Below are positions 4,986-35,417 of a stretch of DNA of 64,000 bases, piece by piece; position 1 is the stretch's first letter; each line of letters begins with the position of its first letter. The stretch is taken from positions 17,455-81,454 of the forward strand of contig JAITDY010000057.1 of the NCBI GenBank assembly GCA_031282325.1, written 5' to 3'. The notes below the pieces were generated by a model, which had not been told where the DNA came from, ran no database searches, and was given only the letters and a program-made list of their open reading frames with translations. The position numbers and the translations under genes are program-made. The DNA comes from Lactobacillaceae bacterium. GTDB lineage: Bacteria > Bacillota > Bacilli > Lactobacillales > Lactobacillaceae.

Positions 4986-5732
4986 TTAATGATGTTCAAC
5001 TTGACTTAAGAACTGTTGGGCTCGCTTTGTTTTTGGATTTTTAAAGAATTCCTCAGTTTTAGAATCTTCCAAAACTTCTCCGTCAGCCATAAAAATAACC
5101 CTGTCAGAAACTTGCTTAGCAAAATTCATCTCATGCGTAACAACTAACATCGTCATATCTGAATCTTGGGCAATATCCTTCATTACATCTAAAACATCCC
5201 CGATCATTTCTGGATCAAGTGCAGAGGTTGGTTCATCAAATAAAAGGGCTTTGGGTTGCATTGCTAGTGAACGTGCTATTGCTACTCGTTGTTTTTGACC
5301 ACCAGAAAGTTCGTTCGGCATATTGGCTGCTTTATCTGCTAAACCTACTTTATCAAGCAACTCCATGGCTATTTTGTGGTTTTCATTTTCAGGTCTTTTT
5401 AAGACGATTCTTGGAGCAAGCATAATATTTTCTAGCGTAGATTTATTATCGTAAAGATTAAAATGTTGAAAAACCATTCCAACATTTTTACGAATTTTAT
5501 TTATATCTGTTTTGTCACTCGCTAAATCGTAACCGTCAACTAATAATTGACCGTCATTAATTTCTTCTAAACCATTAATGGTACGAATTAGAGTTGATTT
5601 TCCTGAACCTGATGGCCCGATTAAAACTACTTTTTCACCTTTTTTAATATCTAAATTAATTTTTTTAAGCGCATGAAAATCACCATAATATTTTTCGACA
5701 TTGTTAAATGTAATCATACTGATATCTGACAT
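4986..5732 (-). CDS. glnQ: Amino acid ABC transporter ATP-binding protein
   Basis: GPSGSGKST, LSGGQKQR, FDEPTSALDPE, VTHEM. Confidence 0.9.
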   Translation of the reverse strand: MSDISMITFNNVEKYYGDFHALKKINLDIKKGEKVVLIGPSGSGKSTLIRTINGLEEINDGQLLVDGYDLASDKTDINKIRKNVGMVFQHFNLYDNKSTLENIMLAPRIVLKRPENENHKIAMELLDKVGLADKAANMPNELSGGQKQRVAIARSLAMQPKALLFDEPTSALDPEMIGDVLDVMKDIAQDSDMTMLVVTHEMNFAKQVSDRVIFMADGEVLEDSKTEEFFKNPKTKRAQQFLSQVEHH

Positions 5733-13072: not shown

Positions 13073-14410
13073 CTAATTTTGTATTTTTTGGGTGAAAAAA
13101 TAGACCACTAAACCTAATACTGCTCCTATTAAAGCTGGAATCAACCAGCCAAAACCTTCCAAAGAAAATGGTACTAGTTGATGATATACATCAATAATAT
13201 TTTTTACTAATTTATTGGTTGCTAATGGTGAACTAGCTAACGCGTCAATAAAAGCAGGTAATGTGACAAAGGCAACTGTAAATTGATAAACAAGAGTATT
13301 TCGATTAAATAATTTGTTGAATAATGATAATAAAATTAGAACCATTGCAAAGGGATAAAGCAACATTAACACTGGAATGGACCAAGCAATTATTTTTGTC
13401 AATCCAGCGTTGGCAGTTATAAATGATCCGACTGCAATTACTTTTAGCCAGCTATTATAAGAAACTTTAGGAAATGCTCGATGCAAGTCTTGAGCAAAGG
13501 ATACAAATAATCCCATCGCCGTTGTAAAAACAGCTAAAGTTACAATAATTCCAGTAGTTAAGGTTCCCAAATTACCAGTATAATGGCCGATAATTGAAGC
13601 AAATGCGTCTCCACCATTAGCTGCTGCTTTAAAGGTACCTAAACTAGAAACACCTAATAATACAAGGGCAGCATAAATAACTGCCTCGGCAACAACTGCC
13701 AATAATCCAGACTTGGCCATTACCTTAGAAACTTGATTATCATGAAAACCAAAGCCCTTAATTGCATAAACAACAGAAACTGAAAGAGCTAATAAAGCTA
13801 CTCCGTCCATAGTATTATATCCGTCTAATATTCCCGTAAGGCCGGCGTTGACTTGATAAGCTTTTGAAACGGTTTGGTCTACGCCACCCATTGGCAAGAT
13901 AAAGGCTAAAACCAAAACGATAACTAACAGTGACATTAATATTGGATTCAAATATTTTCCAACCCACTTCATCAATCCAGATTCCTTAATAGCTAAAACA
14001 TAAGCAGTTGCAAAAAATATTGCAGAAAAAATCAGCATTGCAAGCCATTGATATTTGGTAGGGACAAAAGGCGATATGCCCATCGAAAATGCAGTTGCAG
14101 CTGTTCTTGGCGTTCCAAAAAGTGGCCCAATTGTTAAATGAATAGCTACTAAAAAAGCGGTTCCAAACCATGGTGCTACCGGTTTGGCTACATCATACAC
14201 GCTCTGACTTCGAGTAACGCTGACGGCCAACATTGCCAAAAATGGTAGTAGAGTTCCGGTAACCAAAAAGCCTAAAGTTGCCGGTAACCAATTACCTCCA
14301 GCTAATTGACCTAGTTGGACTGGGAAAATTAAATTACCGGCCCCAAACATCATCCCGAAAATTAGCGATGATAATAAAAAAAGTTGTTTAAATGTTAATT
14401 TTTCTTCCAT
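13073..14410 (-). CDS. brnQ: Branched-chain amino acid:cation symporter (LIVCS)
   Basis: FGAGNLIFP, GPLFGTPRTA, GKYLNP, GYNTMD, LYP motifs. Confidence 0.93.
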   Translation of the reverse strand: MEEKLTFKQLFLLSSLIFGMMFGAGNLIFPVQLGQLAGGNWLPATLGFLVTGTLLPFLAMLAVSVTRSQSVYDVAKPVAPWFGTAFLVAIHLTIGPLFGTPRTAATAFSMGISPFVPTKYQWLAMLIFSAIFFATAYVLAIKESGLMKWVGKYLNPILMSLLVIVLVLAFILPMGGVDQTVSKAYQVNAGLTGILDGYNTMDGVALLALSVSVVYAIKGFGFHDNQVSKVMAKSGLLAVVAEAVIYAALVLLGVSSLGTFKAAANGGDAFASIIGHYTGNLGTLTTGIIVTLAVFTTAMGLFVSFAQDLHRAFPKVSYNSWLKVIAVGSFITANAGLTKIIAWSIPVLMLLYPFAMVLILLSLFNKLFNRNTLVYQFTVAFVTLPAFIDALASSPLATNKLVKNIIDVYHQLVPFSLEGFGWLIPALIGAVLGLVVYFFTQKIQN

Positions 14411-14427
14411 ATTTTCTCCTTAAAAAT

Positions 14428-14457
14428 AAAAAAGACAAACTGTTTAACAGCTTGTCC
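14428..14457 (-). terminator. Attenuator terminator in brnQ leader
   Basis: Minus strand GGACAAGCTGT-TAA-ACAGTTTGTC followed by TTTTTT, just upstream of brnQ SD. Confidence 0.85.
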
Positions 14458-14530
14458 TAGAGTGTAATTTCGGTTGGCTGCCTATCTTAACTTGAAGATA
14501 ATGATAGGCACACAAATTATCAGCACCTTA

Positions 14531-14590
14531 TCATTTAATGATAATAATGCTGATAATAATTTGTGTAGTTGTTCCTGAAAAGTTTCTCAT
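14531..14590 (-). CDS. Putative Ile-sensing leader peptide MRNFSGTTTQIIISIIIIK (19 aa)
   Basis: ATG 14590 to TGA 14531; 7 Ile and 3 Thr codons; lies between a consensus promoter and the terminator preceding brnQ. Confidence 0.8.
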   Translation of the reverse strand: MRNFSGTTTQIIISIIIIK

Positions 14591-14609
14591 AATTTTTATT
14601 TGTAGGGTT

Positions 14610-14638
14610 ATTATATCCAGTTATTTTTTAGTTGTCAA
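14610..14638 (-). promoter_or_regulatory. Consensus sigma-A promoter of leader-brnQ transcript
   Basis: TTGACA-17 nt-TATAAT on minus strand. Confidence 0.9.
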
Positions 14639-31990: not shown

Positions 31991-33391
31991 TTATAAAATT
32001 TTAACTCCCGGGTTTAATAAATTCATTGGGTCTAAAAGCGATTTAATTTGATGTTGCAAATAATCACCTTCAAATCCATTTTGAGCATAATTCCATTCGT
32101 TCTTTTGTGTTCCAACAGCATGTTCTCCAGAAATAACTCCGCCTAGTTCTAAAGTTTTATTAAAAATATCTTTAATAGCATCATTAATAGCGATCGGCGT
32201 TTGTTTTTCATTAATATCCCAGACAAAGCTAGGATGAACATTTCCATCACCAGCATGTCCAGCTACATAAATTTTTAAATTATATTTTTTTGCGATATCA
32301 CTAATATAGTCCATCATTTCGGCCATTTTTGATAAGGGTAAAGACATATCTTCCATCACATGATTATTACCTTTAAAAATAGCCGGTAGCATATCATTTC
32401 TTAATTTAAATAGTTCTGAAGCATGTTTAGGATCGGAACTAATATCTATATTAGTTGCTCCAAAATCTTGTAATATGGAATTTACTTTATTTTCAATTTC
32501 TGGACTTGTAAAATCTAAACGAAAAATTAGCATAGCTGCATTATCTTTTGAATAATTAGTTGATTCATATTCATCTAATTTTTGAACCGTAGCGGCATCA
32601 AGTGCTTCTAAAACCGTTGGATACACTCCTGAAGAACGTAATGTTCCAGTCGCTTTAGTCAATTCAGTCATATTTTTAAAATTGGCTATCCCAACTAAAG
32701 GAGTTCCTAATGGAATTGGTAAAATTTTTACTGTGATTTCAACAATAATTCCCAGTGTTCCTTCAGAACCAACAAACAAGTGCGTTAAATCATACGAAAA
32801 AGCTTGTTTGAGCGTCCGTCCGCCTAATTCAATTACGCGTCCATCCATTAAAACTACTTTCATCCCTAAAACCTGATCTTTTGTAACACCATATCTCACT
32901 GATTGCATTCCACCAGCGTTAGTAGATACATTTCCGCCAATAGAAGAAATATTTTTTGAGCCGGGATCTGGAGCATAGAAAAATCCGTATTTAGAAACTG
33001 CCTTATCTAAATCACCGTTGATAACGCCGGCCTGTACTCGAGCAATCCCATCTTCTGGATTAATTTCTAAAATCTGATTCATTTCAGCAAGTGATAAAAC
33101 AATTGAATCATTTTGGCCACGAGATCCACCGACCACAGAAGTATTGGTGTCTTTAGTAATGATAGGGGTATGAAATTGTCTGGCAACTTTTACTACAGCT
33201 AAAATATCTTCAATACTTTTGGCTAAAACAATTGCAATCGGCAATTGCACTTCCTCATTTGAACTTTTCGGATTATTACTATAATCAAATAAGCTTTGTT
33301 TGTCGAAAAGAACTTTTCCATCTTTAACGCTAGTTTGCAATGCATTTAAGATATCTTGATTGTCGTAAGCAGGAAATTTAGTTTTAATCAT
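31991..33391 (-). CDS. FAD-linked 2-hydroxyacid oxidoreductase (GlcD/D-lactate dehydrogenase-like)
   Basis: PDPGS, IGGNVSTNAGG, GSEGTLG, GHAGDGNVH, SGEHAVG, DPMNLLNPG. Confidence 0.85.
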   Translation of the reverse strand: MIKTKFPAYDNQDILNALQTSVKDGKVLFDKQSLFDYSNNPKSSNEEVQLPIAIVLAKSIEDILAVVKVARQFHTPIITKDTNTSVVGGSRGQNDSIVLSLAEMNQILEINPEDGIARVQAGVINGDLDKAVSKYGFFYAPDPGSKNISSIGGNVSTNAGGMQSVRYGVTKDQVLGMKVVLMDGRVIELGGRTLKQAFSYDLTHLFVGSEGTLGIIVEITVKILPIPLGTPLVGIANFKNMTELTKATGTLRSSGVYPTVLEALDAATVQKLDEYESTNYSKDNAAMLIFRLDFTSPEIENKVNSILQDFGATNIDISSDPKHASELFKLRNDMLPAIFKGNNHVMEDMSLPLSKMAEMMDYISDIAKKYNLKIYVAGHAGDGNVHPSFVWDINEKQTPIAINDAIKDIFNKTLELGGVISGEHAVGTQKNEWNYAQNGFEGDYLQHQIKSLLDPMNLLNPGVKIL

Positions 33392-33451
33392 TTTTACATT
33401 TACCTCACTTTTAATTTTAATACGCCAATGCTTTTTTATTTTTTTATTCTG

Positions 33452-33460
33452 TGTTATAGT
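33452..33460 (+). promoter_or_regulatory. Extended -10 promoter for leader-tcyAB transcript
   Basis: TG-T-TATAGT, 8 nt before leader ATG 33469. Confidence 0.6.
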
Positions 33461-33468
33461 TTATTTTG

Positions 33469-33519
33469 ATGTTTTTAATTAATCATAAAAATAGATATTG
33501 TGAAACCCGTGCTTTATAG
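33469..33519 (+). CDS. Putative Cys-sensing leader peptide MFLINHKNRYCETRAL (16 aa)
   Basis: ATG 33469 to TAG 33519; Cys codon at 33499 inside protector helix; last codons form the antiterminator 5' arm. Confidence 0.6.
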   Translation: MFLINHKNRYCETRAL

Positions 33520-33548
33520 CCGGATATTTTGCATATCTACTTTTCTAT

Positions 33549-33595
33549 AAAGCACCTTTTAAGAAGCGATTTAGTTTATTAAAAGGTGCTTTTTT
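33549..33595 (+). terminator. Attenuator terminator upstream of cystine-type SBP
   Basis: AAAGCACCTTTTAA / TTAAAAGGTGCTTT plus T tract, 24 nt before ATG 33620. Confidence 0.85.
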
Positions 33596-33619
33596 ATTTA
33601 AATTTTTTAGGAGAAAAAA

Positions 33620-34402
33620 ATGAAGAAACAATTATTTATAATCGGGAGCATTATTTTATTAGGAATCAGTATTTTATCGCCAGTTATTGCAAATGCTTCA
33701 ACTGATAATTATTTAGTGAAGAAAAATAAACTAGTGATTGGAATGGAAGGATCTTACGCTCCTTTTGGATACCGAAACAAAAAAGGAAAATTAACTGGTT
33801 TTGAAGTGGAAATTGCCAAGTTATTAGCAAAAAAATTAAATTTAAAACCAGAATTTAAATTAACTAAATTTGATTCTTTAACAATTGGTTTAAACTCACA
33901 TAATTTTGATATTGTTTTAAATAATATGGGATACAGCAAAGAACGTGGGCAGGAATTTTTATTTTCAAAAACTTATTTGTATTCTAGAACGGTGGCTATT
34001 CACACAAAAAAAGTCAAAATAAATTCGCTGAAAGATATTAAAAATAAAAAAATGGCCCAATCTACTGCTTCTAATTATGGACAAATGGCAATAAAAGCAG
34101 GTGGAAAAATTGTAAGCGTTACTGGTTTTGCTGAAGAATTAAATTTAATTGCTAGTGGCCGAGCAGACGGAAGTATTAACGATCTTGGTGCATTCTCGAT
34201 TTGGAAAAAAGAAAATAAAAATAATCTATTAGTAGCTACCGATCTAAAAGATGTGAAAGCTGAGGGCGTTTATGCACTGATTAATAAAAAAGAAATTAAA
34301 CTTCAACAAAAAATTGACGATACTCTAATGACCTTAAAAAAAGATGGAACTTTAAAAAAGCTCTCGATTAAATATTTTGGAATGGATTTAACTGAACAAT
34401 GA
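33620..34402 (+). CDS. tcyA: Cystine-type (TcyA/FliY-like) ABC substrate-binding protein
   Basis: GMEGSYAPFGY, GKLTGFEVEIAK, DGTLKKLSIKYFG. Confidence 0.65.
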   Translation: MKKQLFIIGSIILLGISILSPVIANASTDNYLVKKNKLVIGMEGSYAPFGYRNKKGKLTGFEVEIAKLLAKKLNLKPEFKLTKFDSLTIGLNSHNFDIVLNNMGYSKERGQEFLFSKTYLYSRTVAIHTKKVKINSLKDIKNKKMAQSTASNYGQMAIKAGGKIVSVTGFAEELNLIASGRADGSINDLGAFSIWKKENKNNLLVATDLKDVKAEGVYALINKKEIKLQQKIDDTLMTLKKDGTLKKLSIKYFGMDLTEQ

Positions 34403-35067
34403 TTTCTTTTTTAAGTGATTTAAAATTGTATTTACCGCAACTTTTTTTAAAAGCCCTTACCGTTGCATTACCGCTAACAGTTATTAGTTTTATTATTGGA
34501 TTAATTTTAGCGACGGTTTCAGCGATTATTTTTACACTTCCCAAAGCAAATAAAATTTTGAATTTCTTAAAAAGTTTTTTAAATTTTTATGTTTGGTTTT
34601 TTCGTTCAACACCGTTATTGGTTCAACTTTATATTGCTTTTTTTGGTTTAAAAGGAATTTTTGCAAATGCTTGGATCGCAGGAATTATTGTACTGTCTTT
34701 AAATATTGGTGCCTATGTCAGCCAAAATATCAAAGGTGCCATTTTATCAGTTTCGAAAAATCAATTTGAAAGCGCCATAGCAACTGGCTTAACAGTTTCA
34801 CAAAGCTATAAATATGTAATTTTACCCTTAGCTCTACCGGCAGCGATTCCTGCTTTAGGTAATTCATTTATTTCACTTTTCAAAGATACTTCATTAATTA
34901 GTGCAATCACGATCATCGATCCATTTTTATATGCCCAACAAATTTCTGGTCAAAATTTCCATACTTTAAATTTATATTTGTTAACAGCTATCATGTACGC
35001 GTTTTTTTCAACAATATTTGCTTATCTGCAGTCAGTGACTGAAAAACATTTTTCTATTATTCATTAA
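34399..35067 (+). CDS. tcyB: Amino acid ABC permease (TcyB-like)
   Basis: YVWFFRSTPLLVQL, LNIGAY, QFESAIATG, LFKDTSL. Confidence 0.65.
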   Translation: MISFLSDLKLYLPQLFLKALTVALPLTVISFIIGLILATVSAIIFTLPKANKILNFLKSFLNFYVWFFRSTPLLVQLYIAFFGLKGIFANAWIAGIIVLSLNIGAYVSQNIKGAILSVSKNQFESAIATGLTVSQSYKYVILPLALPAAIPALGNSFISLFKDTSLISAITIIDPFLYAQQISGQNFHTLNLYLLTAIMYAFFSTIFAYLQSVTEKHFSIIH

Positions 35068-35090
35068 TTGCAAGAAAATATGATGCAAAT

Positions 35091-35417
35091 TTAACGTTCT
35101 AGTACTGATTTTCGAAAACGAATTTGATCGGGTTTTAAATGGGTTGCCAATTGCTGAATTAATTTTTTCGTGTTAGAAGTAAGCAATTGTATTTCTTTAT
35201 CATCGTTTGTTTTTACAAAAATACCTCGCCAATAAAAGCCAAATACTTTTTGTACGGAAATATATTTGATTGAGGTAAAAGGAATATCAAGAAAATCAGT
35301 CGAAAAATCACGTTCGAAACTAATCCCTTGAGCAACTACGCTTAAATTACCTTTTAGCATTTTTACTGGATTGACAACTAGTGTTGATCTAACTTTTATT
35401 TCAATCTTTTTTTGCAT
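35091..35417 (-). CDS. DUF956 family protein (ManO-like)
   Basis: Size, PH-like beta pattern and position directly after manZ. Confidence 0.65.
   Translation of the reverse strand: MQKKIEIKVRSTLVVNPVKMLKGNLSVVAQGISFERDFSTDFLDIPFTSIKYISVQKVFGFYWRGIFVKTNDDKEIQLLTSNTKKLIQQLATHLKPDQIRFRKSVLER

Follow-up and report, generated by a model that had tools for sequence, protein, structure and literature searches.

In a 64,000-nt stretch of DNA from a Lactobacillaceae bacterium (the window), we identified a candidate ribosome-mediated attenuator that would read the charging of tRNA-Cys and control an operon encoding a solute-binding protein (SBP) and a permease of the cystine type. We give this reading a probability of roughly 0.8. 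An initial annotation of the same DNA had proposed a cysteine-sensing leader-peptide attenuator ahead of this transporter, and the comparison with orthologous loci presented below supports that proposal.

Every element of the proposal lies in the 228-nt intergenic gap upstream of the SBP gene. The features of the locus, in window coordinates, are as follows.

31991-33391, minus strand: gene for an FAD-linked oxidase, divergent from the SBP gene.
33450-33460, plus strand: putative promoter, a -16 TRTG/extended -10 element (TGTGtTATAGT) recognized by reading the sequence.
33469-33519, plus strand: leader short ORF (sORF) of 16 codons plus TAG, read from the sequence; it aligns with the sORFs of orthologous leaders that are preceded by a Shine-Dalgarno sequence (SD).
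33499-33501, plus strand: proposed sensor codon TGT (Cys), codon 11 of the sORF, conserved in an alignment of nine leaders (A2).
33517-33519, plus strand: stop codon TAG of the sORF, read from the sequence.
33492-33539, plus strand: protector (anti-antiterminator), 33492-33505 paired with 33527-33539 plus inner CCG/CGG and GCU/AGC pairs, in the minimum free energy (MFE) fold (-15.4 kcal/mol as an isolated helix).
33507-33523, plus strand: small inner hairpin in the protector, containing the stop codon (MFE).
33509-33519, plus strand: 5′ arm of the antiterminator, beginning at +10 from the Cys codon and ending with the stop codon; complement of 33545-33555.
33545-33555, plus strand: 3′ arm of the antiterminator, overlapping the 5′ arm of the terminator at 33549-33555.
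33549-33599, plus strand: intrinsic terminator, 33549-33562 paired with 33579-33592, with an inner stem-loop on top and a U-tract at 33590-33599 (MFE).
33609-33613, plus strand: SD (AGGAG) of the SBP gene, read from the sequence.
33620-34402, plus strand: gene 1, family-3 solute-binding protein of the cystine type (Pfam SBP_bac_3).
34399-35067, plus strand: gene 2, ABC permease of the cystine type (the NCBIfam cystine ABC model is best, below its equivalog cut-off).

The top NCBIfam model for the SBP is that of a cystine ABC transporter SBP, with a score below the equivalog cut-off, and its top PDB match is 2YLN/3ZSF (E = 4e-44, residues 32 to 259 aligned; next match, 1e-29). Because 2YLN is the L-cystine-binding protein of Neisseria gonorrhoeae (PMC7170509), the SBP most resembles a solved L-cystine binder, in line with the cystine-type transporter predicted in the initial annotation. 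The orthologous operon of Leuconostoc comprises SBP, permease, and ATPase genes. In the window (34399-35417), no ATPase gene follows the permease; a convergent DUF956 gene comes next. The polar-amino-acid ATPases of the same assembly that best match the Leuconostoc partner (42 to 44% identity) are encoded at other loci, on contig C59 and at about 5001-5714 of the window (minus strand). This assembly, a 0.93-Mb Lactobacillaceae metagenome-assembled genome (MAG), is 65% complete; within it, we found no match to cysK (TIGR01139), which is consistent with cysteine auxotrophy and is no proof of it.

The start codon of the leader sORF (ATG 33469) lies 8 nt after the -10 hexamer, a spacing that makes a leaderless start, or one with a 1-nt leader, plausible. 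No SD is seen in the sequence before this ATG, and no recognizable -35 element was found upstream of the element at 33450-33460. In a relative from the same genus (L004), the sORF ATG follows a -10-like hexamer by 7 nt and likewise lacks an SD. When we scanned the leader, 33469-33519 was the sole ATG-initiated sORF ending no more than 75 nt upstream of the terminator; its Cys codon has an Arg codon on either side (AGA and CGT). A consensus scanner called neither a promoter nor a terminator in this leader. Its rules require a -35 hexamer and a terminator loop of 3 to 8 nt; because the leader lacks the former and its terminator stem carries an inner stem-loop, we regard the silence of the scanner as a limit of the scanner and not as counterevidence.

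The leader folds much better than shuffled sequence does. The MFE of 33462-33600 was -38.4 kcal/mol (ViennaRNA), against -18.8 ± 3.0 kcal/mol for 200 dinucleotide shuffles (z = -6.4), none of which folded as well. The extended -10, ATG, Cys-containing ORF, protector, perfect 11-bp antiterminator, and terminator described in the initial annotation were all recovered, from the sequence and the MFE fold, where it had placed them. The two arms of the antiterminator (33509-33519 and 33545-33555) are exact reverse complements and, as an isolated duplex, have an energy of -14.4 kcal/mol. Antiterminator and terminator share seven bases (33549-33555), and the 5′ arm of the antiterminator lies within the protector hairpin. 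The terminator itself has an energy of about -17 to -20.4 kcal/mol and ends 30 nt upstream of the SBP ATG. Before the 3′ arm of the terminator is synthesized, the energies of the protector and antiterminator states differ very little (-19.0 versus -18.8 kcal/mol), so that the order of synthesis and the position of the ribosome would decide which of them forms. The complementarity of the window's Cys-to-stop segment to the terminator arm exceeded that of 99% of segment shuffles (P = 0.01).

Short ORFs and A-U helices arise easily in AT-rich sequence, and the terminator was not called by the consensus scanner. One might therefore suppose that there is no regulation here, only an unrelated terminator or a small independent transcript with helices that pair by chance. 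The z-score of -6.4 for the fold argues against this supposition, as does the orientation of the upstream gene, which is divergent and therefore needs no terminator at this site; in addition, leaders of this layout precede the orthologous operons of at least eight genera (see below). We consider this explanation very improbable.

Our preferred reading, attenuation by a ribosome that senses Cys-tRNA, would work as follows. Transcription would start at or beside ATG 33469, and a ribosome would translate the 16-codon sORF while RNA polymerase proceeds. Without a ribosome, the protector (33492-33539) would form first and sequester the antiterminator arm, resulting in termination. When Cys-tRNA is ample, the ribosome would reach TAG 33517-33519 and cover 33509-33519; the terminator would then form, and transcription would stop before the SBP gene. 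When Cys-tRNA is scarce, the ribosome would stall with TGT 33499 in its A site, with the 5′ arm of the protector melted. Such a stall would leave 33509/33511-33519 free to pair with 33545-33555, the 5′ arm of the terminator would be taken, and polymerase would continue into the transporter genes. In this scheme, we infer where transcription begins, that the sORF is translated, that the ribosome stalls at Cys, and what follows for regulation; the stop codon does lie inside the antiterminator arm, where a ribosome at the stop would cover that arm.

Three aspects of the window leader strain this model. The first is its geometry. The helicase and footprint literature puts the leading boundary of a ribosome at +9 to +12 or so, counted from the first base in the A site, and with the antiterminator arm starting at +10, the geometry is at the edge. 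If a stalled ribosome shields no further than +11 from the Cys codon, an antiterminator of 9 to 11 bp remains (-11.6 to -15.5 kcal/mol), whereas shielding beyond about +12 leaves only about seven weak, A-U-rich pairs. Relatives have a like spacing (see below), which suggests that a tight Cys-to-arm distance is selected. The second aspect is the number of regulatory codons: classical attenuators use two to seven, and the window sORF has a single Cys codon, a counterpoint to the model. The third is the lack of an SD before the sORF.

To place the leader among known RNA families, we searched Rfam 15. At gathering scores, the whole window contained nothing but two tRNAs, and at E values of up to 10, the leader gave only chance-level matches, aligned over the terminator. 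The T-box model (RF00230) had no match in 33350-33700 even at E values of up to 10. The same model finds six matches elsewhere in this genome, outside the window, two of them above the cut-off; T-boxes are thus detectable in the organism, and their absence from the SBP leader is real. A resemblance to the PyrG leader was rejected, since it reached 19.5 bits against a gathering score of 65 and covered the terminator only. The initial annotation had noted the lack of a T-box and had suggested an Rfam scan that could reveal a known riboswitch; neither a riboswitch nor a T-box was found, and the leader family is absent from Rfam.

We next turned to orthologous loci. About 100 SBP loci were gathered from representative genomes and named assemblies; a single SBP query gave no related loci, and the alignment query A1 did. 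We scanned 101 loci for a terminator and an sORF without selecting for Cys. A terminator was present no more than 110 nt upstream of the SBP start in 24 of them. Exceptions among these were L009, which has no sORF; L012, which has a T-box; and L097, which has an SD-less candidate only, containing Cys. All remaining terminator loci have an ATG-initiated sORF that contains Cys, preceded by a canonical SD in every case save the window and L004. The carriers belong to Leuconostoc, Fructobacillus, Convivina, "Lactobacillus" selangorensis, Limosilactobacillus gastricus, and several MAGs, and include cultured, tractable species such as Leuconostoc falkenbergense, Fructobacillus fructosus, and Convivina praedatoris. 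The layout of promoter, short ORF, and terminator thus precedes orthologous SBP operons in at least eight genera. Most carriers have a canonical TTGACA-N17-TAnACT promoter some 25 to 30 nt before the sORF, and in most of the orthologous loci 19 to 43 nt separate the terminator from the SBP start. In the window's own assembly, the SBP leader was the only leader with a Cys-containing sORF and a terminator that a genome scan found; a further candidate (C2) was discarded because it lies inside the 3′ end of a gene.

Clustering at 75% identity left 15 nonredundant leaders, and all 15 leader peptides contain Cys while being otherwise unrelated. Cys is codon 11 in 10 of the 15, including leaders without any other motif common to the window. 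Both TGT and TGC are used, and several genera have runs of two or three Cys; consecutive Cys codons occur in L006/L049, L010/L071, L022, L046/L047, and L129, all with an SD, whereas the window sORF has a single Cys codon. Cys accounts for 25 of 288 codons (8.7%); the corresponding values are 3.9% in sORFs from shuffled leaders and, for TGY codons in the two alternative frames, 4.6%. For the 15 leaders, P is about 2e-5 for the presence of Cys and about 2e-4 for the number of Cys codons, values that overstate independence because the leaders are related by descent. Alignment A2, made up of the nine closest leaders, shows no variation in the ATG or in the TG of the Cys codon, and the third base of that codon differs only synonymously, being either T or C; this pattern is a signature of coding constraint. 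The window and L004 share the bases just after the ATG and then differ by a 1-nt indel, so that they are read in different frames, with Cys in frame in both. The sORF and its Cys codon, whose conservation the initial annotation had named as a check, are therefore conserved in orthologous leaders.

These data also bear on which amino acid is sensed. The initial annotation had named Arg as an alternative, and the leader could be coupled to translation without being specific for Cys, responding to the rate of translation or to another amino acid such as Arg, with the Cys codon as just one among several interchangeable slow codons. The window sORF would allow this, with one Cys codon only and two Arg codons flanking it, and the RNA would respond structurally in the same way to a ribosome pausing anywhere from about 33490 to 33505. 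Across the leaders, the two amino acids part ways: Arg is found in only 9 of the 15 peptides, its position varying among them, and Cys in all 15, predominantly at codon 11 and in several genera as a run. Thr is likewise present in all 15, but at no fixed position. The genes downstream, moreover, are of the cystine type. Arg as the sensed amino acid thus finds no support, and we judge a sensor that is not specific for Cys to be unlikely.

A different possibility is that the RNA binds a ligand or a protein, its sensor being a CCGG hairpin with a U-rich, UUUUGAC-like motif, and that the sORF is incidental. The CCGG hairpin and the UAUUUUGAC motif are kept in nine leaders from seven genera, and this subgroup yields a specific covariance model, R1. 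Its matches occur in 9 of 151 sampled Lactobacillaceae genomes (7 of 42 genera), with one true copy in each, always upstream of the orthologous operon; a second, weak match in one genome (G149, locus L125) is a false positive at the 5′ end of a dehydrogenase gene. Translation from the window's SD-less ATG is, in addition, something that we infer. Still, eight leaders (L004, L038, L046, L049, L071, L022, L109, and L129) lack the motif and keep the Cys-containing sORF, and all of these but L129 keep the terminator. Drift of the peptide has spared the ATG, the SD, the open frame, and the in-frame Cys, and in the same-genus pair described above, the frame has shifted with Cys still in frame. There is no match to an Rfam family, and neither the length nor the degree of structure of the leader reaches that of the known classes of amino acid riboswitches. 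A ligand- or protein-binding sensor therefore seems to us distinctly unlikely.

Returning to a ribosome that reads the Cys codon, we asked how far the switch logic is conserved by folding the nascent RNA of each leader in two states, one with a ribosome on the first Cys codon and one with a ribosome on the stop codon. With the ribosome stalled at Cys, the segment around the stop codon pairs with the 5′ arm of the terminator in most leaders; with the ribosome at the stop codon, the terminator forms in most leaders. In a separate duplex test, the segment that is free during a Cys stall but covered when the ribosome is at the stop was compared with the terminator 5′ arm and with 500 shuffles. Complementarity was significant in 10 of 14 leaders (P = 0.002 to 0.04; Stouffer combined Z = -7.4); the other four (L007, L022, L049, and L071) have no simple antiterminator as this test defines it. 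In the 10 fitting leaders, the antiterminator arm starts at +9 to +14 nt from the first Cys base; in L038, it starts at +18. About half of the 10, the window among them, have an arm that contains or adjoins the stop codon; the sORFs of L002, L033, and L036 read past the arm. Arm sequences differ by genus (A/U-rich in the window and G-rich in Fructobacillus), each fitting its own terminator.

The initial annotation had also looked to covariation of the helices. For the protector and inner hairpin, the nine-sequence alignment holds zero double changes, and the support for these helices is conserved sequence rather than covariation; they are 77% paired in this alignment, versus about 38% in slid controls. 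RNAalifold recovers only the small CCGG hairpin from the whole-leader alignment, where its yield is limited because terminators and spacers do not align.

The conserved codon position allows a more elaborate version of the model, in which the placement of Cys at codon 11 reflects function, not inheritance, and belongs to a two-ribosome sensor based on collision geometry that has been re-engineered as a leaderless form in the window's genus. The protector of most relatives forms between codons 1 to 3 of the sORF and the conserved U-rich motif that follows the sORF. A stall at codon 11 would leave exactly one ribosome length of mRNA free behind the stalled ribosome, and a second ribosome, initiating or queued, would be needed to hold the protector open. 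In the window's genus, the protector would instead pair with the Cys region itself. We regard this version as doubtful. If true, and taken with the Ile leader described next, it would imply a lineage in which leader-peptide sensors of an SD-less or leaderless kind stand where relatives have T-boxes.

The window contains a second putative leader-peptide attenuator, at 14422-14638 on the minus strand, upstream of brnQ (13073-14410). It has a canonical promoter (TTGACA at 14638-14633 and TATAAT at 14615-14610), an SD-less sORF of 19 codons (14590-14531) with seven Ile among eight consecutive positions, and a terminator (stem at 14456-14434, followed by a U-tract) before the gene for this branched-chain amino acid carrier. 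Its fold z-score is -6.3. Because the Ile codons match the transporter encoded downstream, ribosome-mediated attenuation appears to be in use in this organism, making translated leaders of this kind plausible.

Several other leaders of the SBP family differ in form. In six Weissella orthologues (L037, L040, L044, L048, L050, and L051, from W. hellenica, W. viridescens, W. minor, W. uvarum, W. bombi, and W. muntiaci), sORFs preceded by an SD lie about 60 to 110 nt upstream of the SBP gene; five have 7 to 8 codons, and that of W. uvarum (L048) has 12. Four end in Arg-Cys-stop, and CGATGTT is kept in five. No intrinsic terminator or strong structure was found downstream of the sORF at these loci, which may represent a different, possibly translational, Cys-sensing variant. 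The leader of L129 (genome G031), from another Lactobacillaceae genus, has an SD-preceded sORF of 28 codons about 80 to 165 nt upstream of a permease-ATPase-SBP operon. Within this sORF, four Cys codons fall in a stretch of five positions, and Met is encoded several times; the leader looks like a different kind of candidate Cys (or Cys/Met) leader.

Variation was also seen within genera. The leader of Leuconostoc pseudomesenteroides KCTC 3652 (L035) is almost identical to that of L. falkenbergense (L036) and lacks 10 nt, which make up the G+C-rich portion of the terminator 5′ arm and of the antiterminator 3′ arm; its terminator is probably disabled. Two Fructobacillus leaders (L038 and L098) carry their single Cys codon in the loop of a short hairpin, followed by six or seven U before the stop codon, and in two others with three Cys codons (L046 and L047), a U run likewise comes directly ahead of the stop codon. 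In L038 and L098, the hairpin and U run could be a pause site or an extra, weak terminator ahead of the main one. In the window's genus, L012 of genome G008 has a T-box (positions 1102-1363, 98 bits) before a related SBP gene (44% identity). A Cys specifier was considered for this T-box and rejected; the specifier reads AUG (Met), and the T-box therefore gives no independent confirmation of Cys specificity. Control of this transporter family by sulfur amino acids apparently switches its type of sensor, and apparently the amino acid sensed, within a single genus.

Control of cysteine and cystine uptake in Bacillota is commonly attributed to CymR, LysR-type regulators, or T-boxes, and many lactic acid bacteria are cysteine auxotrophs. 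A Cys codon read by the ribosome would give these bacteria one more means of adjusting cystine import to the charging of tRNA-Cys. Because the family occurs in cultured, tractable species, the proposal is directly testable. The leaders also form a natural series in two respects: their Cys codons range from one to runs of three, and their starts range from SD-led to apparently leaderless. Such a series could help to establish the number of regulatory codons that a leader-peptide sensor requires.

The leader of the window shares its plan with the enterobacterial leaders trpL, hisL, leuL, pheL, and thrL: a short ORF with cognate codons; mutually exclusive protector, antiterminator, and terminator helices; and, in the proposed model, control by the position of the leading ribosome. 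In trpL, the Trp codons are at positions 10 and 11 of 14, comparable to Cys at codon 11 of 16 in the window. The differences are that the window leader would sense Cys, in a member of the Bacillota (Lactobacillaceae), with an ABC importer as its target where the enterobacterial leaders control biosynthetic operons; that it has a single regulatory codon and no SD; and that its antiterminator 5′ arm lies inside the protector loop, whereas in the enterobacterial leaders this arm is the 3′ arm of the protector. It has no sequence similarity or Rfam match to these leaders (Trp_leader, His_leader, and others).

The usual sensor of tRNA charging for amino acid genes in Bacillota is the T-box (RF00230), which has the input and output that we propose for the window leader, tRNA charging and a choice between terminator and antiterminator. 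Stem I, the specifier loop, and the T-box sequence are all missing from the window leader, whose length of about 130 nt is half that of a T-box; sensing would go via the ribosome, whereas a T-box binds tRNA directly.

Cys codons in a short upstream ORF have been described as sensors in other phyla. Polycysteine leaderless sORFs have experimental support in mycobacteria (bioRxiv 10.1101/834739), and Cys leaders of cys genes have been predicted in Actinobacteria (PMC1262725). Cys codons in a short upstream ORF serve as the sensor in these leaders, as proposed for the window, and the mycobacterial ones share the leaderless start that we propose here. The actinobacterial leaders differ in having runs of consecutive Cys, high-GC hosts, and positions before genes for cysteine and sulfur assimilation; the window leader has one Cys codon, a clear terminator/antiterminator pair, and an unrelated sequence. 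The uORFC-8-2 motif upstream of cysS in Rhodobacterales is a predicted Cys-codon attenuator (PMC8632094). It resembles the window leader in its predicted ribosome-mediated mechanism, conserved Cys codons in the first stem, and a terminator after it, and it differs in occurring in Alphaproteobacteria, in having two tandem Cys at codons 14 and 15, and in controlling a cysteinyl-tRNA synthetase.

In the literature outside subscription journals, we found no published Cys leader in Lactobacillales or Firmicutes, or one controlling a cystine ABC importer. Leader-peptide attenuation is a textbook mechanism, for whose Cys version in lactic acid bacteria we found no published description. Within the Firmicutes, a precedent for a leader-peptide attenuator in place of a T-box comes from bacilli, in which a His leader peptide lies upstream of hisS/hisZ paralogues (PMC2965389); the candidate in the window differs from this Bacillus leader in its host, in its target genes, and in its apparent specificity for Cys rather than His.
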